Under the pieces are notes generated by a model. That model searched no databases, was not told the DNA's origin, and worked only from the letters and a program-made list of their open reading frames with translations. Below are positions 1,851 to 47,798 of a stretch of 49,313 nt of DNA, piece by piece. The first letter of the stretch is position 1. Each line of letters begins with the position of its first letter. Both the position numbers and the translations under genes were made by a program. The stretch is from positions 1 to 49,313 of the forward strand of contig CAZDMI010000002.1 in assembly GCA_964506635.1 (NCBI GenBank). Reading direction: 5' to 3'. This stretch comes from an uncultured Thermotogae bacterium (GTDB lineage Bacteria; Bipolaricaulota; Bipolaricaulia; M55B111).

Positions 1851-2458
1851 TTACTTGGAAGAAACCGCCTGTAAGTAGTTGAAAAAAAATATAAAAGGTT
1901 ATATTATGAGTTTACGTGATGGGGGTAACCTTTTAAGGTTTCAGGTAGCTTGGATCCTTAATTGATTCTCTAGAACTGGGTGGTAATTTTGCTTTGTACG
2001 AAAAAGCATATTTGTAGGATCATTTACGGATTCATCTAGGAACTTGGTCGGAAGGAGAAGAGTTTTTTTGTCCGGATCTATTTTTATCTGGTAGGTTCGA
2101 TAAACCAGATAGTACAACTTGATTTGTTTGATTTATTCATTTCCAGTGAGAATCAAACTCATTTAATCCGCTTTTCGTGCTCGACTACTCGTAGCTTACT
2201 ACCGTTAAGTTCCCAGTTCTTTTCTTTTTCCAGTTCTTCTCGTTCTACCTCCAGCCGTTCTTCTATTAAGTATACTCAAAAGGTCATGATTTCGTGTTTT
2301 TCAATAAATATAAAACCCCCGGGGCTTCTAGATCGCTCCTCTATTGGTAATTTCTCCATACATATCAAGATTCTCGATGGCACATTTAGTTCAAATGGTT
2401 ATCTATATGAAAGTTTATTCAAAAATAAATTGCAGCTGTAATACAGGAGGTGCATTCC

Positions 2459-4345
2459 ATGGATTGGCATGGTTATCAAGGGAAGTATTTAAGGGTTAAC
2501 TTGACGGAAGGTAGTGCCAAAGTTGAGGAACTCGAAAAGGAATTTGCAGAAACTTATCTGGGCGGTAATGGCTTTGGTGCTAAAATTCTGCATGACGAGG
2601 TAGGACCAGATGTTGAACCTCTTTCATCAGAAAACAAATTGATCTTTTCTAGCGGGCCTTTAGTTGGAACTCAGTTTCCAAGTTCGGCTAGAGGCGAGGT
2701 CGTTTCGAAGTCACCATTGACCGGCATTTACGGGGATTCCAACGTGGGCGGCATGTTCCCGGCATTTTTGAAGATGTCCGGTTTTGACATGGTCATAGTA
2801 GAGGGAAAAGCTTCTCGTCCTGTTTATCTCCACTTAGAGGATGGTGAAGCTGAGTTAAACCCTGCAAAGGATCTCTGGGGGTTGGATGCCCTTGAAACGG
2901 AAAAGGAATTACAGGATACCCACGGCAAAGCTACGAAAGTAGCAAGTATAGGTCAGGCCGGTGAAAACCTGGTCCGGTTTGCCTGCATCATGGCAAGCCC
3001 AAGCAGGAGTTTCGGACGTACCGGTATGGGTGCCGTTATGGGCTTTAAAAACCTGAAGGCTATCTCGGCTTATGGTACAAACAGGCCATCACTGGCAAAT
3101 CCCGATAAGTTCAAAGAGGTCGCTGCTGAGATGAGGGAAAGAGTTACCAATAACGAGGTATTTCCTACCCTTGAGACCTACGGAACCCCAAGTCTCGTCC
3201 CCTTAATGAACGAAATCGGTCGTTTTCCCACAAAAAATTTCCAGTACGGAAGTTTTGACGAAGCCGAGAAGATAGGACCTGAGAGGCTGCATGAAGATTA
3301 CTGGGTTGAGGACATGGGCTGTTTTGGCTGCCCTGTACAGTGCGATAACCTGTACCGGGTAGAGGAAGGTGAATTCGCAGGAACGGAAATCAGCAGTGTA
3401 GAGTACGAAACATTGAGCGCACTTGGTTCTGGCGTGATGAATTCGAACCTGGCATCTATATTAAAGGGTAACGAACTATGCGATCGTCTCGGGATGGATA
3501 CTATATCAACCGGAAGGACCATATCCATGGCAATGGAGCTCTACGAAGAAGGCATTCTGGACAAAGAGGATGCAGATAATACGGATCTGGAATGGGGAGA
3601 CTATAACACTGTACTGGAATTAATTAAAAAGATCGCTCGGCGAGATGGTTTCGGTGACACCCTGGCCGACGGCGTAAAACGGATGGCAGATTCAATAGGC
3701 AAAGACGCCGAAGAGTACGCGATGCACGTAAAAGGCCAGGAGATCGCGGCGCAGGATGGTAGAGCCCAGCAATCCATGGGGCTGGCTCACGTCACATCAA
3801 CCAGGGGAGCAGATCACCTAAAAGGCTTTCCGGTAATCGACGAAACCGGTAATCCAGAAGAGGCGGAGAGGCGATACGGCGAGGACTACCTTCCCGAGAT
3901 GGCTAACCCTCAAGCGACAAAGCATAAACCTCTTTTAGTAAAAGACGGGGAGGACTTTGGAGTGGTAGTTGATTCCAGTGGCCTCTGTAAATCGGCCGGA
4001 AGTTTTGTATTAGCGGAAATTTACTGGGACGCCGTTTCCGATGGAATTACTTATGCTACCGGGTTAAATTTCTCCAAAGCTAAACTCAAGGATATCGGCG
4101 AGAGAATCTATAATTTGATGAGGATCTATAATTCCAAGCATGGCATAGACTCAGAAGACGATATTTTGCCAGAAAGATTTTTAGAAGAAGAATCCCCTTC
4201 CGGCAGAGCAGAAGGAAACGTATGCAGGTTAGACGAGATGATCGACGAATACTACGAACTGCGCGGGTGGGATAAAGAAACTGGTCTCCCCACCGATGAA
4301 ACCCTTGAGCGGCTGGGGCTAGAAGAACTGAGGCCGGAGGTATAA
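2459..4345 (+). CDS. Tungsten-type aldehyde:ferredoxin oxidoreductase family protein (AOR paralogue 1)
   Basis: N-terminus MDWHGYQGKYLRVNLT. Cluster ligands CFGCPVQC plus a later Cys (GLCKSAG). EYE and GADHLK motifs. The ATG at 2459 lies 8 nt after AGGAGG (2445-2450). The GTG at 2450 in the ORF track overlaps the SD and is rejected as the start. Confidence 0.9.
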   Translation: MDWHGYQGKYLRVNLTEGSAKVEELEKEFAETYLGGNGFGAKILHDEVGPDVEPLSSENKLIFSSGPLVGTQFPSSARGEVVSKSPLTGIYGDSNVGGMFPAFLKMSGFDMVIVEGKASRPVYLHLEDGEAELNPAKDLWGLDALETEKELQDTHGKATKVASIGQAGENLVRFACIMASPSRSFGRTGMGAVMGFKNLKAISAYGTNRPSLANPDKFKEVAAEMRERVTNNEVFPTLETYGTPSLVPLMNEIGRFPTKNFQYGSFDEAEKIGPERLHEDYWVEDMGCFGCPVQCDNLYRVEEGEFAGTEISSVEYETLSALGSGVMNSNLASILKGNELCDRLGMDTISTGRTISMAMELYEEGILDKEDADNTDLEWGDYNTVLELIKKIARRDGFGDTLADGVKRMADSIGKDAEEYAMHVKGQEIAAQDGRAQQSMGLAHVTSTRGADHLKGFPVIDETGNPEEAERRYGEDYLPEMANPQATKHKPLLVKDGEDFGVVVDSSGLCKSAGSFVLAEIYWDAVSDGITYATGLNFSKAKLKDIGERIYNLMRIYNSKHGIDSEDDILPERFLEEESPSGRAEGNVCRLDEMIDEYYELRGWDKETGLPTDETLERLGLEELRPEV

Positions 4346-4654: not shown

Positions 4655-6154
4655 TTGAATTTAAACCCTAAACCGAACGGTATTCTGACCGTAGATGTAG
4701 GTACTTCTTCTTTGAAAACCGCCCTTTACAACCAGGACGGCACCGTACAAAGAAAAGAGATAAGTCGTTACTCCTATAATTCTCCTCAATCCGGCTGGGC
4801 TGAAGGAGACCCTAATGAATGGTGGGAGGCCTTTAAAAAAAATCTTTCCAAATTGAAAAAAGGGGCTCAAGGGATAAGGGATATCGGGGCTATTTCTTTT
4901 ACCGGTCAGATGCATACCGGAATACTTTTAGATAAAAATAAGGAACCAATTAAACCGACCATATTATGGCTAGATCAGCGGGCGGACCAGGAAGCGGAAG
5001 AACTAAGGAACGAACTGAACCTTCCCCCTTATAAGATTAGCAGTGCTTATACGATACCCAAGCTGCTCTGGTTGAAGAAAAACCACCCAGAAAAACTAGA
5101 AAAGACGGAAAAAATATTATGGCCCAAGGACTATCTACGATTCAAACTAACCGGAGAAGTACTGACAGACGTCACGGAAGCTGGCGGTTCGGGTATGCTC
5201 AATTGGCAAAGCAAAGAATGGGAAGAGGAAAGGGTAAAAAAGGTGGGCTTGAGAATGGATCAGCTTCCCCCGTTAAAAAATCCGGAGGAGAAGGCAGGGG
5301 AGATCAAAGAAGAATTTTTAGCAGAATTCGGTTTGAGCGACGATATAGAAGTCTTCACCGGGATCGGCGACGTTGCGGCATTAATGGGCGGTGCGCCTCC
5401 CGATGAAGGAAGAGTCACCTGTACTCTCGGCAGCTCCTCGATGATATTTATGTCACTGGGGGAAGAGGATGAAGTAATAAAAGACTCCGACGACCGCTTA
5501 TACACTTACCCATTATTCCCGTACTTTAATTTTTTTGGGGGAGTTTCATCCACCACCGGGGCTGCCCTCGAATGGGTACAAAATAAAATTACGGGGATAG
5601 AAGAGAGGGATAAGGAGTTCGAAGAAACCATTGAGGAGGCACTGGACGTCGAACCGGGATCAGATGGGCTAACTTTTATTCCGTACCTGAGCGGGGAACG
5701 GAGCCCGTTCTGGAGCGATGATATAAAAGGAGGGTTTTACGGCTTCAGGCTAAGTCACGACTATCGTCATGCCATAAGGGCCGTTATGGAAGGCATAGGT
5801 TTCAGCCTGCGCCATCTTTTGGAAATTTACAATGAACACGGACTACAGCCCGAAAAGCTATCTCTTGCAGGTGGAGGGGCTGACACGAAGGGCTGGCCTC
5901 AAATTATCGCGGACGTAACTCAGATGGAAGTGTCTATTTTCGCCGGACGCGGAAGTGAGGCAGTTACACGTGTACTATTTGCACTCTCGAGTTCGGAAAT
6001 GAACGAAGAAAGTTTCAAGCGAAACTTGGACAAAACATATGCGGACCCGGAGATCGTTCAACCAAGGAACGAGTTAGAGGGCGTATATTCGGAAGGGTAT
6101 CAAACCTATAAAGAATTAAGTAATTTTGCCTTAAAACAATCCGAGAAGCTTTAA
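4655..6154 (+). CDS. FGGY-family carbohydrate kinase (xylulokinase/LsrK-like)
   Basis: N-terminal phosphate-1 motif LTVDVGTSSLKTALY and C-terminal LAGGGADTKGWPQIIADV. 499 aa. TTG start 4 nt after GGAGGTG. Confidence 0.85.
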   Translation: MNLNPKPNGILTVDVGTSSLKTALYNQDGTVQRKEISRYSYNSPQSGWAEGDPNEWWEAFKKNLSKLKKGAQGIRDIGAISFTGQMHTGILLDKNKEPIKPTILWLDQRADQEAEELRNELNLPPYKISSAYTIPKLLWLKKNHPEKLEKTEKILWPKDYLRFKLTGEVLTDVTEAGGSGMLNWQSKEWEEERVKKVGLRMDQLPPLKNPEEKAGEIKEEFLAEFGLSDDIEVFTGIGDVAALMGGAPPDEGRVTCTLGSSSMIFMSLGEEDEVIKDSDDRLYTYPLFPYFNFFGGVSSTTGAALEWVQNKITGIEERDKEFEETIEEALDVEPGSDGLTFIPYLSGERSPFWSDDIKGGFYGFRLSHDYRHAIRAVMEGIGFSLRHLLEIYNEHGLQPEKLSLAGGGADTKGWPQIIADVTQMEVSIFAGRGSEAVTRVLFALSSSEMNEESFKRNLDKTYADPEIVQPRNELEGVYSEGYQTYKELSNFALKQSEKL

Positions 6155-6307
6155 TTGTTTCGAAATACATTTGCTGTAGTAGATAGTTAATAGTTTGTTT
6201 TGAGAAAGTGATGACTATATCAATTACGAAAAGAGAAAATCAAGGTTCAAAGGAGAGCCAGTAATTATAGCTTTAACATTAAAAAAACAAAGGAGAGGTA
6301 ACCTAAC

Positions 6308-7051
6308 ATGAATGACAATCGCCGTTTAAAAAGGTTGTTTTCTGGTCCAAACGATACCTGTTTACTTGTACCCATGGATCACGGTCCCTGGCTTGGACCA
6401 ATCGAAGGCATCAAGGAGCCAAGGGAGATTACTGAAAAGGTAATTTCCGGAGGTGCATCCGGCCTACTGGTAACCCCCGGTTTCGCTGAGACAATTAAGC
6501 CCGTTTTAACTCCAGATGTGGGTCTGGCACTGAGGACAAGCATTACTCTGGGTGCCAGTGAAGAAGCTCAACAGGAAACTCCGGTGGCATCAGTTGAGAC
6601 TGCCCTGAAGCTGGATGCAGATGCCGTTGCTGTGTCGATATTTTTCGGCCGAGGAGCGGAAACCGGTGTTATGGAGTACCTGGGGGAACTTACCGAACAA
6701 GCACATCGTTACGACATCCCAGTACTGGCGGAGATGATGCCCACTGGTGACGAACAGTACGATGCAGAATCCATAGAGCACGTCGCCAGAATTGGCATGG
6801 AGTTCGGGGGGGACATCGTTAAGACGAACTACTGTGGTGACCCAGCTGACTTTTCCGAAATCACGACGTCAGTTCAAAGGCCGGTAATAGTTGCCGGAGG
6901 GCCCAAATCCGAAAGCGGCTCTTCGCTTGAAAATTTGGTAAATGGTGCCGTCGAAGGTGGAGCTGCAGGGGTCGCAATTGGAAGGCGAGTCTGGCAATCG
7001 GATGATCCGGAAGCCACCGTACGGCAAATAAGTAACTTATTATCCTCCTAA
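6308..7051 (+). CDS. Class I aldolase of the DhnA/FbaB/LsrF family
   Basis: 247 aa. VPMDHGP near the N-terminus and a DIVKTNY segment carrying the expected Schiff-base Lys. Length is typical of DhnA-type TIM-barrel aldolases/thiolases. SD AGGAGAGG. Confidence 0.75.
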   Translation: MNDNRRLKRLFSGPNDTCLLVPMDHGPWLGPIEGIKEPREITEKVISGGASGLLVTPGFAETIKPVLTPDVGLALRTSITLGASEEAQQETPVASVETALKLDADAVAVSIFFGRGAETGVMEYLGELTEQAHRYDIPVLAEMMPTGDEQYDAESIEHVARIGMEFGGDIVKTNYCGDPADFSEITTSVQRPVIVAGGPKSESGSSLENLVNGAVEGGAAGVAIGRRVWQSDDPEATVRQISNLLSS

Positions 7052-7061
7052 TAAATCAATT

Positions 7062-8468
7062 ATGAGCCAAAAAGTCGATCTCTTGATCCGGGATGGGGCC
7101 ATACTGCCACTGGATGACGAAGAGGCGTCGGACTGGTCCGATACCCTTATTACGGACGGAATACTGGCCGTCAACCAGGGTGAAATAGTCGATATAGGAC
7201 CATCAAACGAGGTTGGTGACCGGTACGAAGGTAGAGAGACTATAGACGCTTCAGGCAAGCTCTTAATGCCGGGCCTCATAGATACCCATCATCACTTCCT
7301 CCAGAACTTTCTCAAGGGATCGCGCGATGACCTTCAGCTAAGTGAATGGATCGAGGAAGTATCTTCGCCCGTCATAAATATGGCTGTACAGGATTATCTG
7401 AAAGGAGAAACGGAAATCCAGACCCAGGCAACCAGGCTCGGCTGCCTGGAAGCCCTTAAATCGGGTATTACCACCATTCTAAATATGGAGTGGGCTACTG
7501 ATCCGGAGCTTGTATCGGAGTACGAGAGGTTCGGAATAAGGGTAGACCATACACTTACGTTCACGGATTTGGATGAGTGGGACAACCCGGAGATGTTGCT
7601 TCCTTTAGAACAGGGCTTTGAACTGGCCGAGGGTTGGATGAACCGATGCGACAAACTGGAACACGACAGAATAAACTTTAGATACGGTTTAGCTGATCCC
7701 ATATCCTGCAGCGAAAACCTTATAGGGGAAATCAGGGACAGGGCGGAAGAAGAGGAAGTTGGGATCCACACCCACGTAGCTGAAACTGAATACGAAGCAA
7801 CCGAAATCAAAAAAAGGCATGGCCTCACGCCGGTTGAATATCTACAGGAGCTTGATTTGCTGGGATCAAACGTCCTTGGAGCCCACGTCGTGTGGGTAGA
7901 AGACAAAGACATCCAGATACTCGCCGATTCAGAAACGAGTGTGGCCCACAACCCAGAATGTAATATGAAGCTCGCCGACGGCGTTGCACCGGTAAAGGAT
8001 ATGCTGGATGCTGGTATTCCTGTCTCAATTGGGACGGATACGACAGCAGCAAATGATAACATGGATATATTTGAAGCAATGCGAATTGCCGGGATGCTGC
8101 AAAAGGTCACTCAAAACGACCCATCCGTTTTACCAGCATACGAGGCTCTAAAGATGGGAACCCTTGGAGGGGCGCAAGCTCTTGGAAGAGATCAGTCAAT
8201 AGGGTCACTTGCCCGGGGTAAGAGAGCCGACGTAATTTTAGTAGAACTCGGTGGCATCCATATGCAGCCAATCAATAACCTGATTAACAACCTGGTTTAT
8301 TCTGCAAGCGCCGTTAACGATGTGGAAACAGTCATCGTTGACGGGGAAATCATAGTGAGAGAAAACGAGTTCGTAAGTATCGACGAAGAAAAAGTTCTGA
8401 AACAGAGCAAAGATTTTGCTCGTAACAGGTTTTCGGAGGAAGGAATTGAACTTCCACGCTATTACTAA
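7062..8468 (+). CDS. Amidohydrolase-superfamily aminohydrolase/deaminase (COG0402-like: MtaD/guanine deaminase/chlorohydrolase type)
   Basis: Metal ligands PGLIDTHHH (HxH), HTHVAETEYE (HxxE), GAHVVW and GTDT (Asp). 468 aa. Confidence 0.8.
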   Translation: MSQKVDLLIRDGAILPLDDEEASDWSDTLITDGILAVNQGEIVDIGPSNEVGDRYEGRETIDASGKLLMPGLIDTHHHFLQNFLKGSRDDLQLSEWIEEVSSPVINMAVQDYLKGETEIQTQATRLGCLEALKSGITTILNMEWATDPELVSEYERFGIRVDHTLTFTDLDEWDNPEMLLPLEQGFELAEGWMNRCDKLEHDRINFRYGLADPISCSENLIGEIRDRAEEEEVGIHTHVAETEYEATEIKKRHGLTPVEYLQELDLLGSNVLGAHVVWVEDKDIQILADSETSVAHNPECNMKLADGVAPVKDMLDAGIPVSIGTDTTAANDNMDIFEAMRIAGMLQKVTQNDPSVLPAYEALKMGTLGGAQALGRDQSIGSLARGKRADVILVELGGIHMQPINNLINNLVYSASAVNDVETVIVDGEIIVRENEFVSIDEEKVLKQSKDFARNRFSEEGIELPRYY

Positions 8469-8491
8469 AAAATTCGGAGGTATAAAAACTT

Positions 8492-9544
8492 ATGAAAGCT
8501 GCTCCGCTAAAAGAACCATATGAGTTTACTATTCAGGAAAAAGAGATCCCGGAACCGGGTCCAGAAGAAGTTTTGATTGAGGTTTCCACCTGTGGGATAT
8601 GTGGCACCGACCTTGAAGCTTACATGGGCAACGAACCTTCAAGCTGGAACATCGAGTATCCTTTCCAGATGGGCCACGAACTTTCAGGTACCGTAAAAGA
8701 AGTCGGAACCAACGTACCTGATCTGGCCGAGCTAGAAGAAGGGGATGCCGTAGTACCGGATGGTCGGGTTGTATGCAATGTATGTCATTACTGCCGCGAA
8801 GGGCAATATAATCTCTGCGAGAACCAGTCCTACATCGCGGCAGGGTTCTCACAATACGCGGTTTACCCGTATGAAAACCTGATTTCCGTCCCGGAAAGTG
8901 TTTCACTGGACGAGGCCGCTTTTACCGAACCCCTTTCCTGCTGCATCAACGGAAACGAAAAGCTCAATGACGTACCCCTGGGAGGAATAGGTGTCGTTAT
9001 TGGAGCCGGCCCAATTGGCCTTCTACATATGCAGTTGTTGCAAAATAGAGGCCTTGGAACAGTTATCGTCGACCTAAACTCCAGGAGACTCCAGGCGGCG
9101 AAAGAGCTGGGGGCTGATTATACGGTGGAGGTCGAGAGTCAGGGCGAGGTAAATCAGGATGTAGTAGACCTCGTGAACGATGTCTCCCACGGTAGAGGTG
9201 CGGACGTAGTGGTCAGTGCGGCAGGACATGATCCTTCAGTCCTTCAGGAAGCAATTGATATATCTTCCAAAAGGGGACAGATCGTTTATTTTGCCGCAAC
9301 GATGAGTGATCCCGTAACTCTTAACCTGGATCCAATTCACTATGAAGAATTAACTATTGTGGGAAGTCACGATTCTACCTTTGGTAAATACGAAACTGCT
9401 CTAGAAGTTATTGAGAGGGGTGTCGTAGACGTAGAGCCAATTATATCTCATCGCTTTCCTCTCGAAGAAATCGACGAAGCATTTGAAGTAGCCAAGAAGA
9501 AAGAAGACCTGAAAGTCATGGTCGATAATCCAGAAGCACAATAA
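8492..9544 (+). CDS. Zn-dependent medium-chain alcohol/polyol dehydrogenase
   Basis: CGICGTDLE and GHELSGTV catalytic-Zn motifs. Structural-Zn cysteines CNVCHYCREGQYNLC. Rossmann motif GAGPIGLL. SD GGAGGT. Confidence 0.85.
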   Translation: MKAAPLKEPYEFTIQEKEIPEPGPEEVLIEVSTCGICGTDLEAYMGNEPSSWNIEYPFQMGHELSGTVKEVGTNVPDLAELEEGDAVVPDGRVVCNVCHYCREGQYNLCENQSYIAAGFSQYAVYPYENLISVPESVSLDEAAFTEPLSCCINGNEKLNDVPLGGIGVVIGAGPIGLLHMQLLQNRGLGTVIVDLNSRRLQAAKELGADYTVEVESQGEVNQDVVDLVNDVSHGRGADVVVSAAGHDPSVLQEAIDISSKRGQIVYFAATMSDPVTLNLDPIHYEELTIVGSHDSTFGKYETALEVIERGVVDVEPIISHRFPLEEIDEAFEVAKKKEDLKVMVDNPEAQ

Positions 9545-9566
9545 ACAAATTCAGGAGTGATGTGAA

Positions 9567-10433
9567 ATGAAGATGAACAGTGTAGAAATTAAGGACACTT
9601 TTGCAGAAGCATGGGAACTAGAAGTTGTTAGGTTGGTAATAACGGCTATTTCGGAAGATATTGCCATGGAAGCCGCTCACCAATTCGTCGGTGCTGCCGG
9701 TTCCAGCGAATTAGGTTCAAACGTTTCCGGTGGAATTGAAGGTGCGGTCAGCCCTTCCGAAACTCCGGACGGTAGATCAGGAGTGGCTGTTCAGTTAACC
9801 ATGCCACCTGGAGAACACGAGCAACTAGTAGACCAGCTTGCCCTGAGGGTAGTACTATCAACTCTCGTTCCTTCCTGTGCAGTATTCGATTTCCCGGCAT
9901 CCGACGTAGAGACGGAAAGTATCGACCTTTACGGCGAAACTGAAGATAACTGGGAAGGGCACGACTGCGAGGAAGTAATTAGCGGGCACGAAATGGCCGT
10001 CACTCCAACGACTACTGGCAGTTTTAAGTACGAGAAAGAGGTAAGCTACTCTACGGAAGGTACTGATGGCCACTTTGTATGCTATGCCGATAACGAATCA
10101 GAAGCCATCTTCGCCGTAAAAGCAGCTAAAGCAGCAATAAAGGATATCGACGGTGTTTCGCCAATGGGATACGGACTCGAACAGGTGTACCGAGAATGGG
10201 ATTACGTACCCGCCCTGAGGGATGAGATAGAAGACAGTAAGGTTCCGGAAGACGTTAACTCGATACTCAACCTGTTGATGTTTGGATCCTCAATGGACAA
10301 AATGGAGAACGCAATGGAAGCTGGCCTTCGAGCAGCAACCAATTCCGGAGACTTAATCTCCATTGGTGCGATGAACTTTGGCGGTGAGTTCGGCAGTTAC
10401 GAATACCACCTTCACGATCTACTGGAAGCCTAA
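9567..10433 (+). CDS. Formylmethanofuran:tetrahydromethanopterin formyltransferase (Ftr/FhcD)-like protein
   Basis: 288 aa. VEIKDTFAEAW, SETPDGRSGVAV and the C-terminal MNFGGEFGSYEYHLHDLL align with remembered Ftr strings (VEIEDTFAEAF, ETPDGRPGV, GNFGGKLGQYEIHLHDL). Confidence 0.7.
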   Translation: MKMNSVEIKDTFAEAWELEVVRLVITAISEDIAMEAAHQFVGAAGSSELGSNVSGGIEGAVSPSETPDGRSGVAVQLTMPPGEHEQLVDQLALRVVLSTLVPSCAVFDFPASDVETESIDLYGETEDNWEGHDCEEVISGHEMAVTPTTTGSFKYEKEVSYSTEGTDGHFVCYADNESEAIFAVKAAKAAIKDIDGVSPMGYGLEQVYREWDYVPALRDEIEDSKVPEDVNSILNLLMFGSSMDKMENAMEAGLRAATNSGDLISIGAMNFGGEFGSYEYHLHDLLEA

Positions 10434-10447
10434 AAGAGGTGACCTAA

Positions 10448-11434
10448 ATGCGTTATCGAAAACTTGGTAGTACAGGCTTTAAGGTGTCTGAAATAGGATA
10501 CGGCGCCTGGGGAATAGGTGAAGGTGAATGGAAGGGGAGCTCGGAAGAAAAAGCATTCGAGTCACTAAACCTGGCAATAGACAACGGAGTTAACTTTATT
10601 GATACGGCTCTGGGCTATGGCGAAGGAAAAAGCGAGGAAATAGTGGGTGAGGCAGTAAGAAAACGGGACGAAAGGGTATACATCGGCACTAAAGTTCCGC
10701 CAAAGAACGATGAATACGTGCCCGGCCCCGAAGTACCTGTGGAAGAGGCTTATCCAAAGGACTGGATCCTTGAAGCAACCGAGAAGAGCCTTGAAAACCT
10801 AGGCCAGGACAAAATCGATTTTCTTCAACTCCATGTCTGGGTGGACGAGTGGGCAAAATCGGACGGTTGGAAAGAGGCGGTTTCAGAATTGAAAGATAGC
10901 GGGATGATCTCCTCTTTTGGATTGTCCCTGGTGTTCCCGTTTCCAGAAGAAGAGCCGAATTACCCGGCCAGAGCTATCGGAACGGGTCTAATAGATGCAT
11001 GTAACGTCGTCTACAACATTTACGAACAGGAGAAACCACAGGAAAACCTTTTCCCGCTCGCAGAAGAGGAAGAGGTAGGGGTGATTGCGAAGTCTCCCCT
11101 CGACGAAGGAGCGTTGACCGGTAAGATTACCCCGGAAACGGAATTTCCGGAAGACGACTGGAGAAACTGGTACTTTAGAGAAGACCGGAAAGAAGAAGTT
11201 TATCAGCGAGCTCAGGACCTGGAATGGATGATAGAGGAAGGGGAAGTAGACTCACTCCCCGAAGGTGCACTGAGGTTCGGGCTCAGTCACTCAGCAGTTT
11301 CTACGGTCATAGTTGGTATGCGGAGCCCGAAGCACGTGGAAGAGAACGTTAGCACCTCGGACAAGGGACCGCTACCCAAGAGCTACCTTGAAAGACTAGA
11401 GGACCACGCCTGGCATCACAATTACTGGGCTTAA
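10448..11434 (+). CDS. Aldo/keto reductase
   Basis: GYGAWGIG, FIDTALGYGEGKSE (Asp/Tyr), IGTKV (Lys) and LQLH (His) form the AKR catalytic tetrad pattern. SD AGAGGTGA. Confidence 0.85.
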   Translation: MRYRKLGSTGFKVSEIGYGAWGIGEGEWKGSSEEKAFESLNLAIDNGVNFIDTALGYGEGKSEEIVGEAVRKRDERVYIGTKVPPKNDEYVPGPEVPVEEAYPKDWILEATEKSLENLGQDKIDFLQLHVWVDEWAKSDGWKEAVSELKDSGMISSFGLSLVFPFPEEEPNYPARAIGTGLIDACNVVYNIYEQEKPQENLFPLAEEEEVGVIAKSPLDEGALTGKITPETEFPEDDWRNWYFREDRKEEVYQRAQDLEWMIEEGEVDSLPEGALRFGLSHSAVSTVIVGMRSPKHVEENVSTSDKGPLPKSYLERLEDHAWHHNYWA

Positions 11435-11446
11435 TTAATAAATAAC

Positions 11447-11490
11447 CCCCGGGGTAAAAAAGTTCTCTACCCCGGGGTAAATTTTTCTTT
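11447..11490 (+). terminator. Terminator/attenuator-like hairpin inside the cluster
   Basis: CCCCGGGGTA (11447-11456) pairs with TACCCCGGGG (11468-11477), giving a 10-bp GC-rich stem and an 11-nt loop. TAAATTTTTCTTT follows directly, before the ATG at 11491. Confidence 0.45.
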
Positions 11491-12870
11491 ATGTTTGAAC
11501 TCGTCATAAAAAACGGAACTATAGTGAATCCATCCGGGCGCTTTCGCGGTGACATCGGAATCAATGACCGGACCATCGAATCAGTATCGAAGAATCTAGA
11601 AGGAGAAAGCGAGATCGATGCTTCCGGTTGTTTTGTCGTTCCAGGTGGGGTAGACCCGCATACTCACTTAGAGATGCAATCGGGTGACCTGGTGACTGCC
11701 GATACATTTCATACCGGAACGATTGCGGCAAGCCACGGGGGGACTACCACAGTCATTGATTTCGTAGAGCCCGAGGAAGGCGTGTCATTGGAGGAGGCCT
11801 TTGAACGTAGAAAGGAAGCAGCGAATAACGAAGCTCAGCTGGACTATAGTTTCCATATGACGATTCCAAGCTGGCATGCAAGTCGGGGAATAGAGGAGCG
11901 GGAAATAAGGGGTTTAATGGATCAAGGAATTACCAGTTTTAAGTTATATCAGGCTTACGAGGGCTTAAAACTTGATGACGATCAACTTTACCAAGTCTTG
12001 AAAACACTGGGCTCTTTAAAAGGCTTACCAATAATCCACTCCGAAAACGGTCCTCTATCTAAGGCCCTCCAATCTGAAAAACTGGAAGAAAGCAAGTGTG
12101 AGCCACGATTCCACGCCGCGTCCAAACCCCCATTACAGGAGGCCGAAGCAGTAAGCAGGGCTATCGTTGTAGCCAACCTGGCTGACTCCCCCCTGTACGT
12201 AGTGCACGTGTCAGCGAAAAGATCCCTTCACAAAATACAAAAAGCAAGGAAGCGAGGCGAGGATATATACGGCGAAACCTGCCCGCAATACTTGCTCCTG
12301 GACAAAAAACTACTTGAGCAACCCAAAGGAGAAATGTACATTTGCTCTCCCCCTTTAAGAGAAGCAGAAGACCAAGAAGCTCTCTGGCAAAGCTTAAATT
12401 CTGGAGCTCTTCAGGTTGTGGCCACGGATCACGCTCCTTTTACGGAAGCAGAAAAGCTCAGCGGTAATGACTTTACTCAAGTTCCCGGCGGTCTTCCTTC
12501 AATAGAAGGCAGGTTAAGTTTCATTTATGATGCCGGGGTGAAAACTGGCAAGATTTCTCTGGAGAAGTGGGTAAGCATTACCTCAACTCGACCTGCTAGA
12601 ATCTTTGGTCTGGAAAAGAAAGGGTTGCTTGAACCGGGATACGATGCCGACATAGTTGTTTTTGATCCTCAAGTTAAACGGGAAATATCACCCGAGAATC
12701 TCCACGAAGACGTCGACTGGTCCCCTTACGAGGGGCTTCAGGTGGAAGGCTGGCCCAGGACAGTTATAAGTAAGGGGGAAGTTTTGATTTCAGAAGGAGA
12801 ATACCTCGGTAAAACTGAGAGAGGAGAGTTCGTCCAAAGAAAAATTTCGTCGGTATATTCAGACTTATAA
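11491..12870 (+). CDS. D-hydantoinase / dihydropyrimidinase (cyclic amidohydrolase)
   Basis: VPGGVDPHTHLEM, GGTTTVIDF, ITSFKLYQAY (carboxylated Lys), IHSENG, LYVVHVS, ATDHAPF and DADIVVFDP. Collinear with remembered D-hydantoinase sequences over the full length. Confidence 0.9.
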   Translation: MFELVIKNGTIVNPSGRFRGDIGINDRTIESVSKNLEGESEIDASGCFVVPGGVDPHTHLEMQSGDLVTADTFHTGTIAASHGGTTTVIDFVEPEEGVSLEEAFERRKEAANNEAQLDYSFHMTIPSWHASRGIEEREIRGLMDQGITSFKLYQAYEGLKLDDDQLYQVLKTLGSLKGLPIIHSENGPLSKALQSEKLEESKCEPRFHAASKPPLQEAEAVSRAIVVANLADSPLYVVHVSAKRSLHKIQKARKRGEDIYGETCPQYLLLDKKLLEQPKGEMYICSPPLREAEDQEALWQSLNSGALQVVATDHAPFTEAEKLSGNDFTQVPGGLPSIEGRLSFIYDAGVKTGKISLEKWVSITSTRPARIFGLEKKGLLEPGYDADIVVFDPQVKREISPENLHEDVDWSPYEGLQVEGWPRTVISKGEVLISEGEYLGKTERGEFVQRKISSVYSDL

Positions 12871-12885
12871 ATTAAACGGTGTAAA

Positions 12886-14199
12886 ATGAAATTATTACTC
12901 GGTAATTATTTAATAAATCCTCGTCAGGACCATCTCAAAAAAGAGTGTGGGGTCGCGATCGAGGATGGGATGATCAGGAAAGTAGCTGGCAACGGGAAAC
13001 TCCAGGAAGAGTATCCAGAGGCCGAAGTTATAGATTTAAGAGACAAGATCCTCTCTCCTGGGTTTATCAACTCTCACATGCATTCCTACGGTATTTTATC
13101 CCATGGAATAGAGACCCCAGAAATTGGCAGTTTCAAGGACTTTCTCGAAAAATTCTGGTGGCCAGAAGTGGAGAACCAAATAGACCATGGGTTAATAGAA
13201 ATTAGTACCAGGGCAGCCGCCTTAGAACTTATTAACAGTGGCGTTACAACATTTTGTAACGTTATGGAAGCACCCAATGCCCTCCCTGGAGCCCTTGCGA
13301 CACAGGCAGAGGTATTAGACCAGTTAAATGTCAGAGCCGTGCTGTCTTTTGAGGCTTCGGAAAGAATAAGCAGGGCCAATGGAAATAAGGGGCTCAAAGA
13401 AAACGTGGATTTCTCCCTCGAAAAGGAAAACGATTCCTTGCTCTCCGGTATGATGTGTGTCCATACCACTTTTACTTGTTCTCCGGATTTTATCGAAAAA
13501 GCGTCCGCTCTGAGCAAGGAAAACGGGCTCTCAGTTCAAATGCACCTGAATGAAAGTAGTTATGAACCCGAGGTATGCAAAGACCGGCATAACCTGGCCC
13601 CTGTACAGCTTTATCGAGATTTGGGGTTCCTGGATAACCACGTTTTGGCCTCTCAGGGGGTTAAGCTAAGCGAAGAAGAAATTCAGATTTTAAAGGATAA
13701 AGGAGTCAACCTCGCGCACGTCCCGCTGTCTAACTGTGAGGTTGGTGGGGGCATAGCTCCGGTTCCAGATTTACTCGAGAAAGGGATAAACGTTTCTTTA
13801 GGTACCGACGGATATATTAACAACTTCTTTGAAGTCATGCGCGCCGCTTTCTTGATCCACAAGGGAAACCTCGAGACACCAGACGTAATGCCCGCCAGAA
13901 AGGTCTTACAGTTAGCAACGGTTAACGGGGCAAACGCTTTTGGACTCAACAAGTTGGGACGTTTGAAAAAGGGGTATCGTGCCGACGTGATTGCGCTGGA
14001 TGCGGATTTCGAAACTCCTTTTCGGGACCACAATTATTACGAGCAGTTAATTATGAGGCGGAACCCCAAACACGTCAGAGACGTCTTCATCAACGGTAAT
14101 TCAGTAATGAGGAACGGCGAATTCACTTACACTTCTGTGGATTTGAAGTCGGCCAGAAAGGAATTAAACAAAGCAGCCCATAAACTTTGGAAAGGGTGA
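12886..14199 (+). CDS. Amidohydrolase-superfamily aminohydrolase (SsnA/chlorohydrolase-like)
   Basis: SPGFINSHMHSYG (HxH), VQMHLNESSYE (HxxE) and LGTDG (Asp). 437 aa. Confidence 0.75.
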   Translation: MKLLLGNYLINPRQDHLKKECGVAIEDGMIRKVAGNGKLQEEYPEAEVIDLRDKILSPGFINSHMHSYGILSHGIETPEIGSFKDFLEKFWWPEVENQIDHGLIEISTRAAALELINSGVTTFCNVMEAPNALPGALATQAEVLDQLNVRAVLSFEASERISRANGNKGLKENVDFSLEKENDSLLSGMMCVHTTFTCSPDFIEKASALSKENGLSVQMHLNESSYEPEVCKDRHNLAPVQLYRDLGFLDNHVLASQGVKLSEEEIQILKDKGVNLAHVPLSNCEVGGGIAPVPDLLEKGINVSLGTDGYINNFFEVMRAAFLIHKGNLETPDVMPARKVLQLATVNGANAFGLNKLGRLKKGYRADVIALDADFETPFRDHNYYEQLIMRRNPKHVRDVFINGNSVMRNGEFTYTSVDLKSARKELNKAAHKLWKG

Positions 14200-14206
14200 T
14201 ATCTTA

Positions 14207-15283
14207 ATGAATTTAGAAGTCTCTCTCCTTGGAAATACCCTAGAGAACCCGTTTGTTTTGGCTTCTGGCCCTTTAAGCTATAGCGCAGAAGGTATTATCA
14301 AGGCCGACCGGGCCGGGGCAGGGGCCATAGTAACTAAAACCATTCGCCAGGAGGCTGCGGAAAACCCTACCCCGCACATAGTTGAGTCGGACAATAATTC
14401 TTTGATAAACGCAGAAAAATGGTCCGACCTCCCCCCTGAACGATGGATCGAAGACGAAATACCCAGGGTAAATGACATCTCGGCCATGTTGATTGCAAGC
14501 ATAGGTCACACTGCCGCCGAAGTAGAAAGCTTTCTGGAGCCAGTTGAAGAAGCTGGAGCCGACGGGTTTGAACTCGTTTCTTATGACAGGAACACACTTT
14601 TGCCCATGGTAGAAAAGGCCCGTTCAATTACGAATAAGCCCGTACTCGTTAAGGTCAGCCCAAACTGGGATTCCCCGGTCGAAACTGCCCTGGAAGCACT
14701 TGAGGCCGGAGGAAGTGGGGTGACAGTAATGGATTCTCTGGGTCCGGTCCTGAAAATCGATATCGAAAAAGAGAGTCCACTGCTGGGTAGTGAAAACGGA
14801 ACTGGGTGGCTCAGTGGAGAAGCGATCAACCCGCTGATGCTAAGATACGTTGCACAGATCGCGAGTTCAACCGAAAAACCCATCATCGCCACTGGGGGGA
14901 TCACCTCGGCAGAAGACGCAATGGAAGCCTTGATGGCCGGCGCCGCTGCGACAGGGCTTTGCTCTGCCGCGATCTTGAAGGGAGTGGAGTACTTTGGAAC
15001 CCTCCGACAGGATATGGAGGATTTGATGAACTCCATGGAATATGAGACCCCATCGGAGGTAACTGGAGCGGCTTTGAAAAACGTAACCGGCAAGGAACAT
15101 TCAAACGAGTTGTCCTTCAAGTTCGATGAAAATAAATGCATAAACTGTGGCAGATGTGTGACTGTTTGCTCGTATGATGCCAGAAGTCTGGAAAATGGTA
15201 AGATGGAACTAAGTAAAGAGAGATGTAGACACTGCGGTCTGTGTGTATCAGTGTGTCCTACCGAGGCTTTAACTCATGAATAA
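14207..15283 (+). CDS. Dihydroorotate/dihydropyrimidine dehydrogenase-like flavoprotein with C-terminal 2x[4Fe-4S] ferredoxin domain (PreA-like)
   Basis: NPFVLASGPLS, IVTKTI and GGITSAEDA form a DHODH-type TIM barrel. The C-terminus has CINCGRCVTVCS and CRHCGLCVSVCP. SD AAGGGTGAT. Confidence 0.8.
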   Translation: MNLEVSLLGNTLENPFVLASGPLSYSAEGIIKADRAGAGAIVTKTIRQEAAENPTPHIVESDNNSLINAEKWSDLPPERWIEDEIPRVNDISAMLIASIGHTAAEVESFLEPVEEAGADGFELVSYDRNTLLPMVEKARSITNKPVLVKVSPNWDSPVETALEALEAGGSGVTVMDSLGPVLKIDIEKESPLLGSENGTGWLSGEAINPLMLRYVAQIASSTEKPIIATGGITSAEDAMEALMAGAAATGLCSAAILKGVEYFGTLRQDMEDLMNSMEYETPSEVTGAALKNVTGKEHSNELSFKFDENKCINCGRCVTVCSYDARSLENGKMELSKERCRHCGLCVSVCPTEALTHE

Positions 15284-15316
15284 GGGAAAGATTTTTATAC
15301 CCAAGGAGGATTCAAT

Positions 15317-17173
15317 ATGGGGCTAACCGCAGAAATTAACCTTTCGGAAAATCAGGTAAAAGTTAGAGAGACCGAAAAGGAACTCTATTCTAAATTTTTA
15401 GGGAGCAGGGGGTATGCAGCAAAAATACTCTATGACCGTGTTGGTCCCGAAGTGGATCCGCTAGATCCCGAGAACCTGCTCATATTTTCTACGGGGCCTC
15501 TAACCGGAACTCCCTGGCCAACTTCTGCTCGATACACTCTAACAGGAAAATCCCCTCTGACGGGAATATATGGATACTCTAATTCTTCCGGATATTTTGG
15601 CCCGGAGCTAAAAAAAGCAGGCTTCGACGCGCTTGTATTCTCAGGTGAGTCCTCCGAACCACAGGTTTTATTCATAGACAACCAGGACCTCCAATTAATC
15701 TCAGCTGATGAATACTGGGGTATGACTACAAAAGAAGTAGAGGATGAGCTCAAGGAAAGGTTTTCCGGAGTAAAAGTCGCCTCCATTGGACCCGCCGGAG
15801 AGAACCTGGTTAAGTTCTCTTCCGTAGTCAACGACTATAGCCGAACGGCAGCTCGCTGTGGTTTAGGAGCTGTTATGGGCTCTAAAAATTTGAAAGCCGT
15901 TGCCGTACGCGGCGAAGGTGAAGTCGACTACAGTTCTGAATTCGCGGATATTGCAAAACGGATGATGCAAAAAGTAGGGCAACACCCAGGTTCAAAATCC
16001 TTAAGAAAATGGGGTACTGCCCACTTAATAGGGCCCAAAAACGTCCGGGGAGATTTACCCACGAGAAATCATCAATACGCCCAGTTCAAAGACGCCGATC
16101 AGATAGACGCAAAGAGTCTGGATGAGTACGTTACGAAAAACTCGGGCTGTTATTCCTGTCCCATTGCCTGTTCTCGTCACTCTAAAGTGGATAAAGGTAA
16201 ATATAAGAGTGAAGTCGAGGGACCCGAGTACGAAACGATGGATTCCCTGGGGCCACTGGTGGGGAACGGTGATCTAGAATCCATCATACATGGAAACCTC
16301 TTATGCAATCGCCTTGGAATCGATACCATTTCTACGGGAGTAGTAATCGCCTTTGCAATGGAATGCCACGAAAATGGTTTACTGGATAGCGAGGACTTAA
16401 GCCTCGAATGGGGGGATAGCGAAACTGTTATCCAGCTAATTCAGGATATTTCTCACAGGCAAGGTTTAGGTGAAACACTGGCAGAGGGAGTTCAAGATGC
16501 CGCCAATAAAATAGGAGGCGGCGCTTCTTACTACGCTATGCACGTAAAAGGAATGGAGATGCCCAGACAAGAACCGAGAGTTTGTAAATCCTATGGCCTG
16601 GCTCATTCTACTTCTAATAGGGGCGCGGACCATCTTTACGCCTTACCTACAATAGATTTAACCAACAACGAGGAAGTCGGAGAAAGCTTCTTCTCCGAAT
16701 GTATGCCCGAGGTCCTTGATCACGTAGATGAGACCTGTAAGCCCGATATGATCGTCTTTACTGAAGCTTTTAACGCGATATCCGATGCACTGGGCGTCTG
16801 CAAATTCTCAACAACCGAGAACTTTGCTCTTTATCCCGAGGATCTCGCAAGAGGACTCAGTACTTTTAAAGAATTTGAGCTTGACGGAAAGGCTTTGATC
16901 AAGGCAGGAGAAAGAATTGTAAATCTAGAACGGATGTATAATCACCGTCATGGTATAGATAGAACGGACGATCAATTACCCGAGAGGATACTGGAAGAGC
17001 AAATATCGGTATACGACATGGACACCGGAGAACAGGTGGAAGAGGGTTTGGAAGTGGATTTAGCATCGATGCTCGACCGGTATTACGAATTGAGGGGTTG
17101 GACCGAGGACGGAACACCCAAAGCTTCCAAACTCGAGGAATTAGAACTGGGTAGTCTAATTGAAGACATATAA
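15317..17173 (+). CDS. Tungsten-type aldehyde:ferredoxin oxidoreductase family protein (AOR paralogue 2)
   Basis: 618 aa. CYSCPIAC plus GVCKFST cysteines, EYE and GADHLY. Collinear with the AOR at 2459-4345. SD AGGAGG. Confidence 0.9.
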   Translation: MGLTAEINLSENQVKVRETEKELYSKFLGSRGYAAKILYDRVGPEVDPLDPENLLIFSTGPLTGTPWPTSARYTLTGKSPLTGIYGYSNSSGYFGPELKKAGFDALVFSGESSEPQVLFIDNQDLQLISADEYWGMTTKEVEDELKERFSGVKVASIGPAGENLVKFSSVVNDYSRTAARCGLGAVMGSKNLKAVAVRGEGEVDYSSEFADIAKRMMQKVGQHPGSKSLRKWGTAHLIGPKNVRGDLPTRNHQYAQFKDADQIDAKSLDEYVTKNSGCYSCPIACSRHSKVDKGKYKSEVEGPEYETMDSLGPLVGNGDLESIIHGNLLCNRLGIDTISTGVVIAFAMECHENGLLDSEDLSLEWGDSETVIQLIQDISHRQGLGETLAEGVQDAANKIGGGASYYAMHVKGMEMPRQEPRVCKSYGLAHSTSNRGADHLYALPTIDLTNNEEVGESFFSECMPEVLDHVDETCKPDMIVFTEAFNAISDALGVCKFSTTENFALYPEDLARGLSTFKEFELDGKALIKAGERIVNLERMYNHRHGIDRTDDQLPERILEEQISVYDMDTGEQVEEGLEVDLASMLDRYYELRGWTEDGTPKASKLEELELGSLIEDI

Positions 17174-17342
17174 ACAATGAACCTGACAAATTTTCAAAAG
17201 AAATAAAAGTAAAAATCAATCTGTGAAGAAAGCAGAAGTAAAAACTGAATTCTTTTTTGTTGCACGTATTACCTAACTTAAGTAAAATAATGATCCTATT
17301 GATAATTGTATGACAGCTTTACAAAACATAAGGAGGAAAAGT

Positions 17343-18023
17343 ATGCCGGACGATCAAATATTGGTGAACCTGCAAGAAGCGGTGAAAGAGATGGACCAGG
17401 AAGCCGCAGAAGAGGCGGCTCAAAAAGTGGTTGATGAGGATAGGGATATCCTCGAAGCAATAGAGGCTGCTACCGAAGCAATAAGAGAAGTGGGGGACTG
17501 GTTCCAGGAAGGAGAGATATATTTACCTGAACTTACCTGGGGAGCAGAGGCCATGCAAGGGGCAATGGATATTCTTAAACCACATTTAGAGGACAAGGAC
17601 GCATCAGAAACTAGCAAGGTGCTCATTGCTGCAGTCAAAGGGGATATACACGACGTTGGTAAAAACCTTGTCGACATAATGCTGGACATATCCGGCTTCG
17701 AGATAGAAAATATCGGTACAGATATTCCTTCCATGGATATAATCGATAAAGCCGAGGAGATGGGCGCAGATATCATCGGCTTATCCGCCTTAATGACTAC
17801 TTCTATCCCTTACCAAAAAGAGGTAATCAATTTACTAGAGGATATGGATAAAAGGGAAGAATTCTACGTAGCTGTTGGTGGTGGGCCTGTCTCAAAGGAA
17901 ATAGCCCAGGATATGGGGGCTGACATCTGGGCTAAGAACGCGGCAGGTGCAGTAAAGGCATGTGAACGAGCACTGGAATCACCTTCGAAACCTTCAGAAG
18001 ATTTCGTCTTTGAGGAGGATTAA
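17343..18023 (+). CDS. Corrinoid (cobalamin)-binding methyl-carrier protein, MtmC/MtbC/MttC-like
   Basis: DxHxxG motif (DIHDVGKN), LSALMTT (SxL) and VAVGGGP. The ATG at 17343 is preceded by AGGAGG, so the in-frame upstream ATG at 17310 is less likely. Confidence 0.85.
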   Translation: MPDDQILVNLQEAVKEMDQEAAEEAAQKVVDEDRDILEAIEAATEAIREVGDWFQEGEIYLPELTWGAEAMQGAMDILKPHLEDKDASETSKVLIAAVKGDIHDVGKNLVDIMLDISGFEIENIGTDIPSMDIIDKAEEMGADIIGLSALMTTSIPYQKEVINLLEDMDKREEFYVAVGGGPVSKEIAQDMGADIWAKNAAGAVKACERALESPSKPSEDFVFEED

Positions 18024-18024
18024 T

Positions 18025-31880: not shown

Positions 31881-31952
31881 ATGGAAAAATGCATTTCTAG
31901 TTTTGCAAGAAGAAAGAGAAGCCAATTTGGAAAAACGGGTAGGTTTTTATGA
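31881..31952 (+). CDS. Candidate 23-codon upstream ORF translationally coupled to the dipeptidase gene
   Basis: Strong SD AGGAGGGTG (31867-31875) precedes the ATG at 31881. Encodes MEKCISSFARRKRSQFGKTGRFL. Its TGA (31950-31952) overlaps the dipeptidase ATG (31949) as ATGA. Confidence 0.3.
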   Translation: MEKCISSFARRKRSQFGKTGRFL

Positions 31953-40567: not shown

Positions 40568-40583
40568 GGTTAATATCCCCTTT

Positions 40584-41963: not shown

Positions 41964-41967
41964 CTCG

Positions 41968-44044: not shown

Positions 44045-44209
44045 ATGGTCAATTGTCCTGAGTGCGGTACGGAAATCGATCTTCCGGAAGACACTATCAA
44101 GAACGAGATTCTGGATTGTCCTACCTGTGGCCTGGAGCTCGAAGTGGTGAGCCTGGATCCGGCCGAGGTAGATCTCGCACCCGAAGAAGAAGAAGACTGG
44201 GGTGAATAG
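44045..44209 (+). CDS. lysW: Amino-group carrier protein LysW/ArgW
   Basis: 54-aa ORF not in the supplied track (too short): MVNCPECGTEIDLPEDTIKNEILDCPTCGLELEVVSLDPAEVDLAPEEEEDWGE. It has a CPxCG...CPxCG zinc ribbon and the hallmark C-terminal EDWGE. SD AGGAGGTG (44031-44038). LysX-type ligase genes follow directly. Confidence 0.88.
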   Translation: MVNCPECGTEIDLPEDTIKNEILDCPTCGLELEVVSLDPAEVDLAPEEEEDWGE

Positions 44210-44212
44210 AAC

Positions 44213-46979: not shown

Positions 46980-46993
46980 GGACGGAGGAAGTC

Positions 46994-47788: not shown

Positions 47789-47798
47789 ATAGAGGTAA

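Follow-up and report, generated by a model that had tools for sequence, protein, structure and literature searches.

The Ftr-like gene and its product

An intact open reading frame (ORF) lies at positions 9567..10433 on the plus strand of the window, the 49,313 nt stretch of a Bipolaricaulota metagenome-assembled genome (MAG) that is analysed here. It starts with ATG, has zero internal stops and encodes a protein of 288 aa that is related to Ftr, the formylmethanofuran:tetrahydromethanopterin (H4MPT) formyltransferase, and to its bacterial counterpart FhcD. The gene, which is intact and under selection, belongs to a bacterial clade not characterised before, referred to here as Ftr-like, and its product is not a formylmethanofuran:H4MPT formyltransferase.

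An earlier note on this DNA, made by reading the sequence, had picked out the strings VEIKDTFAEAW, SETPDGRSGVAV and MNFGGEFGSYEYHLHDLL in the product and likened them to the Ftr of Methanopyrus and Methanosarcina. All three strings are in the 288 aa protein and the likeness runs through its full length. It matches the Pfam families FTR (87.8 bits, cut-off 27), over residues 1–147, and FTR_C (73.8 bits, cut-off 25), and can be aligned end to end with M. kandleri Ftr (1FTR, E 3.8e-36), as well as with 1M5S, 1M5H and FhcD (6S6Y_D). The solved structures used in these comparisons are the Ftr of Methanopyrus, Methanosarcina and Archaeoglobus and the FhcD of Methylorubrum. An AlphaFold2 model of the window protein, built with 41 clade sequences, has a pLDDT of 91.7 and a pTM of 0.89. 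The only fold matches of this model are 1M5S, 1FTR, 1M5H and 6S6Y_D, with TM scores of 0.84–0.88, all others being at 0.22 or less. Both the Pfam matches and the model place the two-lobed Ftr fold, with its distal FTR and proximal FTR_C lobes, in the window protein. FTCD_N and FTCD domains gave no Pfam match at E values up to 1, where only FTR and FTR_C were reported, and no FTCD structure is among the fold matches of the model.

The central third of the protein had been described as divergent and very acidic, which is borne out by the alignment. Identity to 1FTR is 21% in this third, against 41% and 33% in the outer two, and it is the most acidic part of the protein, with 20.8% aspartate plus glutamate (D+E). 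The low-confidence loops of the model, at residues 41–50 and 201–210, are the same loops that carry clade-specific invariant residues.

Separation from the canonical enzymes

When scored against TIGR03119 and NF002554, the NCBI equivalog/subfamily models for Ftr and FhcD, the window protein falls below both cut-offs (142.1 against 292.6 bits and 175.5 against 297 bits). Among 1.84 billion 50%-identity representatives of sequence space, only two are more than 50% identical to it (53–54%). The next two are at 38% and 37%. Identity within the clade is 53–63%, while identity to canonical enzymes does not exceed 34%.

The phylogeny with FhcD and archaeal Ftr that the earlier note had proposed gives the same separation. 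A tree of 71 sequences of the Ftr family places the window protein in a clade of its own, with an SH-aLRT support of 100 and a stem length of 0.87. Both the archaeal Ftr structures and the group of FhcD fall elsewhere in this tree, and the window protein is inside the clade of neither. This is very probably a distinct, non-canonical clade that has become fixed in a conserved catabolic operon.

The nearest relatives in the tree are a small sister group of paralogues (P0123, P0124, the second copy at locus L037, P0136, P0138, P0139 and P0169), joined to the Ftr-like clade with a support of 99 and at 37–38% identity. The genomic context available for this group is that of P0123 (L037/L038, GCA_023131225.1, JAGLZW010000002.1), where the cluster contains an amidohydrolase, two Gfo/Idh/MocA oxidoreductases, two MCH-like genes, a second FTR gene, M19 dipeptidases and a sugar-type ABC transporter. 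It forms a further puzzling setting for Ftr and Mch paralogues. A gene of the M19 membrane-dipeptidase family is also present in the window, at 31949–33010, which may be coincidence.

Active-site residues

Glu245 of M. kandleri Ftr is said to have been called strictly conserved by Acharya et al. in 2006. Alignment with the solved structures, another of the checks suggested in the earlier note, shows that the catalytic Glu present in all four of them (VYE245IV, VLE252IV) corresponds to Asn235 of the window protein (SILN235LL). This replacement extends through the clade, as Asn occupies the position in 125 of 125 members. Glu is found there in 38 of 46 canonical sequences and also in six of the seven sister-clade sequences, which differ from the Ftr-like clade in this respect. 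In FhcD the active site is at the homodimer interface, and the oxyanion is presumably stabilised by the equivalent residue, the conserved and protonated Glu252 (Hemmann et al., PMC6926001).

The change of Glu to Asn is accompanied by about 15 further invariant switches. Given from M. kandleri to the clade, these include F16W, Q95L, G128W, V147T, G166D, N168H and V187K, followed by F200M, P201G, T223R, N224E, N249F, G279M and L285F. The clade has in addition gained one residue, G45, and lost a loop of approximately 14 residues in which the conserved S209-K210 is located. New invariant polar residues in the clade are D167, H169, K188, E205, Q206, R209 and E210. The window protein has the whole of the clade signature: W16, the G45 insertion, W129, D167, H169, E205, Q206, R209, E210, N235, M269, F275 and the short 201–210 loop.

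Much of the family core has been kept, including D10, T11, A13, E14, R22, T26, TPDGRxG at 66–72, R94, P147, G151, N270, G273 and G276. Around 60 positions are invariant in the clade, among them the Ftr core motifs DTFAEA, TPDGRxG and NFGG. That these core residues were kept speaks for a protein that still catalyses or binds.

Archaeal Ftr (EC 2.3.1.101; PDB 1FTR/2FHJ/2FHK, 1M5S and 1M5H) has the same full-length two-lobed fold (TM 0.87–0.88), is 31–32% identical and has the motifs DTFAEA, TPDGRPG and NFGGxxG in common with the Ftr-like protein, but differs from it at Glu245, in the S209-K210 loop and at the other switched positions. It is also an enzyme of a C1 pathway, whereas the Ftr-like gene is part of a sugar/amine catabolic operon in hosts that mostly do not have methanofuran and H4MPT genes. 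The bacterial FhcD of FhcABCD (6S6Y chain D) likewise has the same fold (TM 0.84), and in addition a bacterial host and a nearby amidohydrolase gene. At 29% identity, it belongs to a different clade, and its Glu252 is not conserved in the Ftr-like protein.

Genes of the operon

The neighbours of the Ftr-like gene were counted at 32 loci, spanning Chloroflexota, Bacillota and Spirochaetota, as genes homologous to those of the window and no more than 10 kb from the Ftr-like gene. An independent clustering was also run. A core set of genes, at 4655–11434 in the window, is present at 24 to 30 of the loci. In the window all of these genes are on the plus strand. The tightest linkage is to the immediate upstream partner, a Zn-dependent medium-chain dehydrogenase (Zn-ADH) similar to Tdh, sorbitol and inosose dehydrogenases (8492..9544), found at 30 of the 32 loci and in some cases, such as L003, overlapping the Ftr-like gene. 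Before it is amidohydrolase 1 (7062..8468; 27 loci), of the group of MtaD, 5'-deoxyadenosine deaminase, TRZ-ATZ and 8-oxoguanine deaminase. A DhnA-type class I aldolase of the DeoC/LacD family (6308..7051; 24 loci), for which the nearest models are ADH synthase and LsrF, and an XylB-like FGGY sugar kinase (4655..6154; 26 loci), which scores 346 bits against a cut-off of 380, are further upstream. Downstream of the Ftr-like gene is an aldo/keto reductase (AKR; 10448..11434; 26 loci).

The best solved relative of amidohydrolase 1 is the MTA/SAH deaminase 4F0R. Membership of the MtaD/TRZ-ATZ group indicates that it is a mononuclear deaminase of amino-heterocycles or amidines, and not an FhcA-like protein. 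The earlier note had mentioned that FhcD partners the amidohydrolase FhcA in methylotrophs and had suggested a ring-cleavage product as substrate, and here it needs correcting: the conserved partner is of the deaminase type, neither like FhcA nor obviously ring-opening. This also sets the locus apart from FhcABCD, which has a binuclear amidohydrolase of the FhcA/FwdA type and in which the scaffold subunits FhcB and FhcC are present; no GXGXG or molybdopterin-type subunits (FhcB/FhcC) were found in the window with Pfam.

The sole long intergenic gap contains a GC palindrome with a 14-bp stem (11447..11477) and splits the core genes from an accessory module. The promoter and terminator scan of the window gave background levels only. 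The module, at 11491..17173 on the plus strand, consists of a dihydropyrimidinase (516 bits, over a cut-off of 393), an SsnA-like aminohydrolase, a PreA-like flavoprotein with two [4Fe-4S] clusters and a second aldehyde:ferredoxin oxidoreductase (AOR 2), each found at between two and six of the 32 loci. AOR 1 (2450..4345, plus strand; six loci) is also accessory. At most of the other loci a GlcD-like FAD oxidase (22 of 32) and a CCG iron-sulfur protein (23 of 32) stand in place of the AOR, and a GntR/UTRA regulator is present at 15. On the minus strand, at 230..1264, there is a gene similar to 2,4-diaminopentanoate dehydrogenase, of the amine dehydrogenase family, which recurs beside the cluster in L011, L020 and L035. 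The earlier description of the neighbourhood, as one of amidohydrolases, dehydrogenases and AORs, therefore agrees with the genes present: two AORs, three amidohydrolases, the Zn-ADH and the AKR, to which the PreA-like flavoprotein, the FGGY kinase and the class I aldolase can be added. It had also been noted that methanogenesis and H4MPT genes were missing, and a Pfam scan of all ORFs in the 49 kb with a length of 100 aa or more identified no fwd/fhc, mch, mtd, mer, mtr or mcr genes.

Genes of methyl transfer follow the accessory module on the same strand. These are a corrinoid (B12-binding) protein similar to MtgC and MtbC (17310..18023) and a methyltransferase of the MtmB family without an in-frame stop (17962..19416), which is thus pyrrolysine-free. 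Among the 32 loci, MttB-like methyltransferases and corrinoid proteins are each found at 17 and MtmB-like methyltransferases at 10. The listed GTG of the MtmB homologue overlaps the corrinoid gene by 62 nt. The Pfam match begins only at residue 30, so the true start is probably downstream of this GTG. Two sister species have the MtmB homologue at 95% identity. The copy in one of these, G073 (G073:C122:1354–2805), contains a single in-frame TGA, possibly a sequencing error or a case of recoding.

Uptake systems associated with the cluster vary by lineage. Chloroflexota have sugar-type ABC transporters of the CUT1 class, while some Bacillota have Bmp-type ABC transporters and others energy-coupling factor (ECF) systems. 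In the Bacillota loci L003 (10998–11621) and L035 (11029–11643) the Ftr-like gene is followed by a membrane protein of approximately 204 aa and then by CbiQ and two ABC ATPases, which resembles an ECF transporter that has a private S-component. The S-component matches no Pfam or NCBIfam family, and no more than 16 clusters of it, all unnamed, are present in the protein collection. The transporters yielded no hint of the substrate.

A block of higher GC content (54–55%) at 36259–48980 is unrelated to the Ftr-like gene. It has carAB, argH and argG on the minus strand and, on the plus strand, an arginine or lysine biosynthesis cluster of the LysW-carrier style, with two LysX genes and ArgC, ArgB and ArgD-type genes.

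The host genome

The host genome, a MAG of a halophilic member of the Bipolaricaulota, comprises 1.58 Mb in 215 contigs and is 74% complete. Its GyrB is 88–92% identical to proteins named Candidatus Bipolaricaulota; no 16S or 23S primer-site patterns were found in the MAG. The proteome is acidic, with 15.9% D+E and 10.9% lysine plus arginine. The tetranucleotide signature of contig C2 correlates with the rest of the genome at r 0.963 (median 0.958), and the Ftr-like protein of the window has 18.8% D+E, against an average of 12.6% and at most 15.2% in its homologues. This marks the gene as resident and as adapted to a halophilic host, its product having been acidified in the same way as the host proteome, and a mis-binned contig is ruled out on the same two grounds.

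There is only one FTR-family gene in the host genome. The search of the genome for H4MPT and methanofuran genes that the earlier note had called for did not find MCH, the H4MPT biosynthesis enzyme beta-RFAP synthase or the methanofuran biosynthesis enzyme MfnB in this 74% complete MAG. MCH is also absent from 19 of 19 genomes of the host family, these being the host and 18 relatives. Enzymes of tetrahydrofolate (THF) metabolism are present: on contig C3, FolD, formyl-THF synthetase (FTHFS) and a Pterin_bind methyltransferase adjoin one another, the last of which is a methyl-THF methyltransferase.

Distribution of the Ftr-like clade

Among the matches listed there are at least 120 homologues at 53–63% identity, from Chloroflexota, Bacillota, Spirochaetota and Bipolaricaulota. 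Anaerolineae, other Chloroflexota and Clostridia are the sources of these listed matches, and many carry the annotation of the methanogen enzyme. When species-representative genomes were scanned, 29 loci were identified, in Anaerolineae, Caldilineales, Chloroflexia, Clostridia/Bacillota and one Spirochaetales MAG. The gene is also carried by the enrichment-cultured 'Ca. Formimonas warabiya' DCMF, at approximately 3,237,688–3,238,554 of NZ_CP017634; the papers and proteome tables for this organism do not mention the Ftr-like protein.

Pathway markers were searched for in ten carrier genomes, including the host. FTHFS is present in all ten, MCH in three, and beta-RFAP synthase and MfnB in two each. 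Formimonas and a Caldilineaceae MAG are the two carriers in which both RFAP synthase and MfnB occur, and in each of them the markers form an island with a second FTR gene. The N-domain of the second copy scores 172–205 bits, against 82–103 bits for the Ftr-like copies, and in the tree it groups with FhcD. An H4MPT pathway, where present, is thus served by an FhcD of its own, with the Ftr-like gene as an extra paralogue at another site. The earlier note had considered whether this might be the only, canonical Ftr copy alongside a complete H4MPT pathway, and neither pathway-bearing carrier is of that kind.

The islands, of MfnB, beta-RFAP synthase, MCH and a canonical FhcD-type gene, are at G001:C1:858001–878000 (L058) in Ca. 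Formimonas warabiya and at 48–66 kb of G008:C23 in the Caldilineaceae MAG. These are apparent methanofuran/H4MPT modules in a Peptococcaceae bacterium and a Chloroflexota MAG, lineages that are not usually linked to such modules.

Within the Bipolaricaulota, for which 184 genomes were searched, the clade was found in no genome besides the host. Distant FTR homologues, at 25–33% identity, are present in 22 Bipolaricaulota genomes of other families (G020, G049 and G120–G183; loci L051–L055), some of them in open frames of up to 593 aa that may be fusions. In the sister species G075 and G073 the flanks are common to the host at 80–89% nucleotide identity, and assembly of the contigs stops within the amidohydrolase genes on either side of the Ftr-like segment. 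In G075, contig C75 ends at 8654 and C37 begins within the dihydropyrimidinase gene, with the missing segment corresponding to approximately 7407–11828 of the window. Since the contigs end within the bracketing genes, the absence of the clade from G075 and G073 is an assembly gap and not evidence. A recent acquisition by a single species is thus unsupported, the gap in the sister species coinciding with contig ends. The assembly break in G075 may reflect strain-level variation at this segment.

Proposed function

The earlier note saw in this gene a non-methanogenic Ftr homologue recruited for another substrate or another pterin. This is supported by the sub-cut-off scores, the separate clade, the lost Glu, the absence of Mch, RFAP synthase and MfnB and the presence of THF enzymes. 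A one-carbon group is probably what the Ftr-like protein transfers, within an as yet undescribed anaerobic pathway. That this group is an acyl group, formyl or formimidoyl, passed from an amine intermediate to a tetrahydropterin, is what we infer, with the chances falling somewhat short of even. The earlier note had proposed the transfer of a formyl or formimino group onto a ring-cleavage product, an inference likewise.

In the proposed mechanism, the acyl-transfer chemistry of Ftr would be kept at the dimer-interface site. Asn235, also a neutral donor, would supply the hydrogen bond to the oxyanion in place of the protonated Glu245/252. A formyl or formimidoyl group would be moved from an N-formylated amine intermediate to N5 or N10 of a tetrahydropterin. 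The acceptor is likely to be THF, because methanofuran and H4MPT are absent and THF enzymes are universal in the hosts. Methyl groups, by way of the corrinoid, MttB/MtmB and Pterin_bind components, and the formyl group would then enter the THF pool of a Wood-Ljungdahl or FTHFS-containing anaerobe, in which FTHFS could convert formyl-THF to ATP and formate. Family membership of the other core enzymes gives an outline of the carbon route. The AKR, Zn-ADH and XylB-like kinase echo the reductase, polyol dehydrogenase and kinase of a pentose route, and the presence of the class I aldolase suggests that a ketose phosphate is cleaved to dihydroxyacetone phosphate and a short aldehyde. This aldehyde would be handled by the AOR or, after further oxidation, by the GlcD-like oxidase. 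The families of the neighbouring genes suggest an N-methylated substrate that combines a (deoxy)pentose- or polyol-like chain with an amidine or amino-heterocycle.

A known parallel for such a step is the glutamate formimidoyltransferase domain of FTCD, which is THF-dependent and takes a formimino or formyl group from the amine product of heterocycle breakdown. In SCOP it is listed beside Ftr, as a duplicated alpha/beta fold of two subdomains. It is a functional analogue, with neither a sequence match nor a fold match to the Ftr-like protein.

The fullest form of the proposal is put forward tentatively. It would have a THF-dependent formyl/formimidoyl transferase, with a reaction new to the Ftr fold, act in an undescribed, widespread anaerobic pathway that banks methyl and formyl groups on THF for acetogenesis and ATP. 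Candidate substrates would be a modified nucleoside or a 5'-deoxy/5'-substituted adenosine-type compound. Several points weigh against formyl or formimidoyl transfer to THF. Neither a formylated intermediate nor an enzyme that makes one was identified among the pathway genes, and the conserved amidohydrolase is of the deaminase type and is no known ring-opener. THF is tied to the protein only by the absence of alternatives and by nearby genes for THF-dependent methyltransferases. A search of the available literature for Ftr-like, FhcD-like or PF01913 proteins outside methanogens and methylotrophs, and for the operon, returned nothing relevant. The active site has also been heavily remodelled (E245N, N168H, T223R, N224E, G166D and loss of the S209-K210 loop), so that the transferred group, and even the reaction class, may have changed.

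It is possible, if on the doubtful side, that the fold has been kept while the chemistry has changed, with transfer of another group, a lyase or isomerase reaction on the amino-sugar or polyol product of the Zn-ADH, or a non-catalytic role as a binding or scaffold subunit. Loss of the catalytic Glu, the further invariant switches and the deletion of a conserved loop would all fit this, as would the fact that the closest linkage is to the Zn-ADH and not to any C1 enzyme, and FhcD itself acts within a complex (PMC6926001). A scaffold alone would not, however, require some 60 invariant positions that include core motifs common to the catalytic enzymes, and Asn is a plausible isosteric hydrogen-bond donor in the place of protonated Glu.

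It is unlikely that the Ftr-like protein and the neighbouring amidohydrolase form a pair in the manner of Fhc that strips off the formyl group and releases free formate, with no transfer to THF. The amidohydrolase gene is two genes upstream at 27 of the 32 loci, the FhcD of methylotrophs partners the amidohydrolase FhcA (PMC6926001), and P0123 of the sister clade, at 38% identity, also adjoins an amidohydrolase. The amidohydrolase of the operon is nevertheless of the mononuclear MtaD/TRZ-ATZ deaminase group and not of the FhcA/FwdA type, and the window has no FhcB or FhcC homologue. The presence of FTHFS in all ten of the carriers searched makes it energetically attractive to keep the formyl group on THF.

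A biosynthetic direction, in which 10-formyl-THF is used to N-formylate an amine such as an amino sugar, would be in keeping with the reversibility of formyl transfer by Ftr and with the existence of sugar N-formyltransferases in bacteria. This is very improbable in view of the catabolic context (kinase, aldolase, AOR or GlcD-like oxidase, uptake systems and GntR/UTRA regulator), in which there are no glycosyltransferase or nucleotide-sugar genes.

That this is an ordinary Ftr or FhcD, with its methanofuran and H4MPT partners in the missing 26% of the MAG or scavenged from methanogens, is scarcely credible: the MAG is only 74% complete and the fold and overall alignment do fit Ftr, but the equivalog scores are below cut-off, the protein is outside the canonical clades and lacks the catalytic Glu, MCH is missing from every genome of the host family, seven of the nine other carriers are without RFAP synthase and MfnB and six of the nine without MCH, and the pathway-bearing carriers own a separate canonical copy. 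A canonical Ftr with an unseen pathway was rejected on these grounds.

Implications for marker genes and for the Ftr family

Ftr is regarded as tied to methanofuran and H4MPT, and databases label the Ftr-like proteins as the methanogen enzyme. The Pfam families PF01913, PF02741 and PF02289 serve as markers of methanogenesis in metagenomes, and bacterial Ftr-like and MCH-like genes may inflate such marker counts. In metagenomes of the Guerrero Negro hypersaline mats, the Pfam counts are 698 for ftr, 620 for FTR_C and 864 for mch, with 69 for mtd, 83 for hmd and 362 for mtrA, the ftr and mch counts being roughly ten times those for mtd and hmd (PMC10059902). Such figures are consistent with inflation by Ftr-like and MCH-like genes from organisms other than methanogens.

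A Clostridia MAG with an Ftr-like cluster (G007) has seven MCH-family matches, without RFAP synthase or MfnB. On its contig C35 (L056, G007:C35:1–16000), three full-length MCH-like ORFs and a trailing fragment are located around an SDR gene and a set of 2-oxoacid dehydrogenase E1a, E1b and E2 genes. This points to recruitment of Mch paralogues, too, outside H4MPT metabolism.

The Ftr-like protein is a known fold with a rebuilt active site, a new cofactor logic and a new pathway context. The presence of a compact and widespread bacterial clade, in hosts without methanofuran and H4MPT and with this rebuilt active site, implies a second function for the Ftr fold. The operon ties the clade to pyrrolysine-free MtmB and MttB proteins, and solving one part of this system should reveal the whole of an anaerobic pathway.

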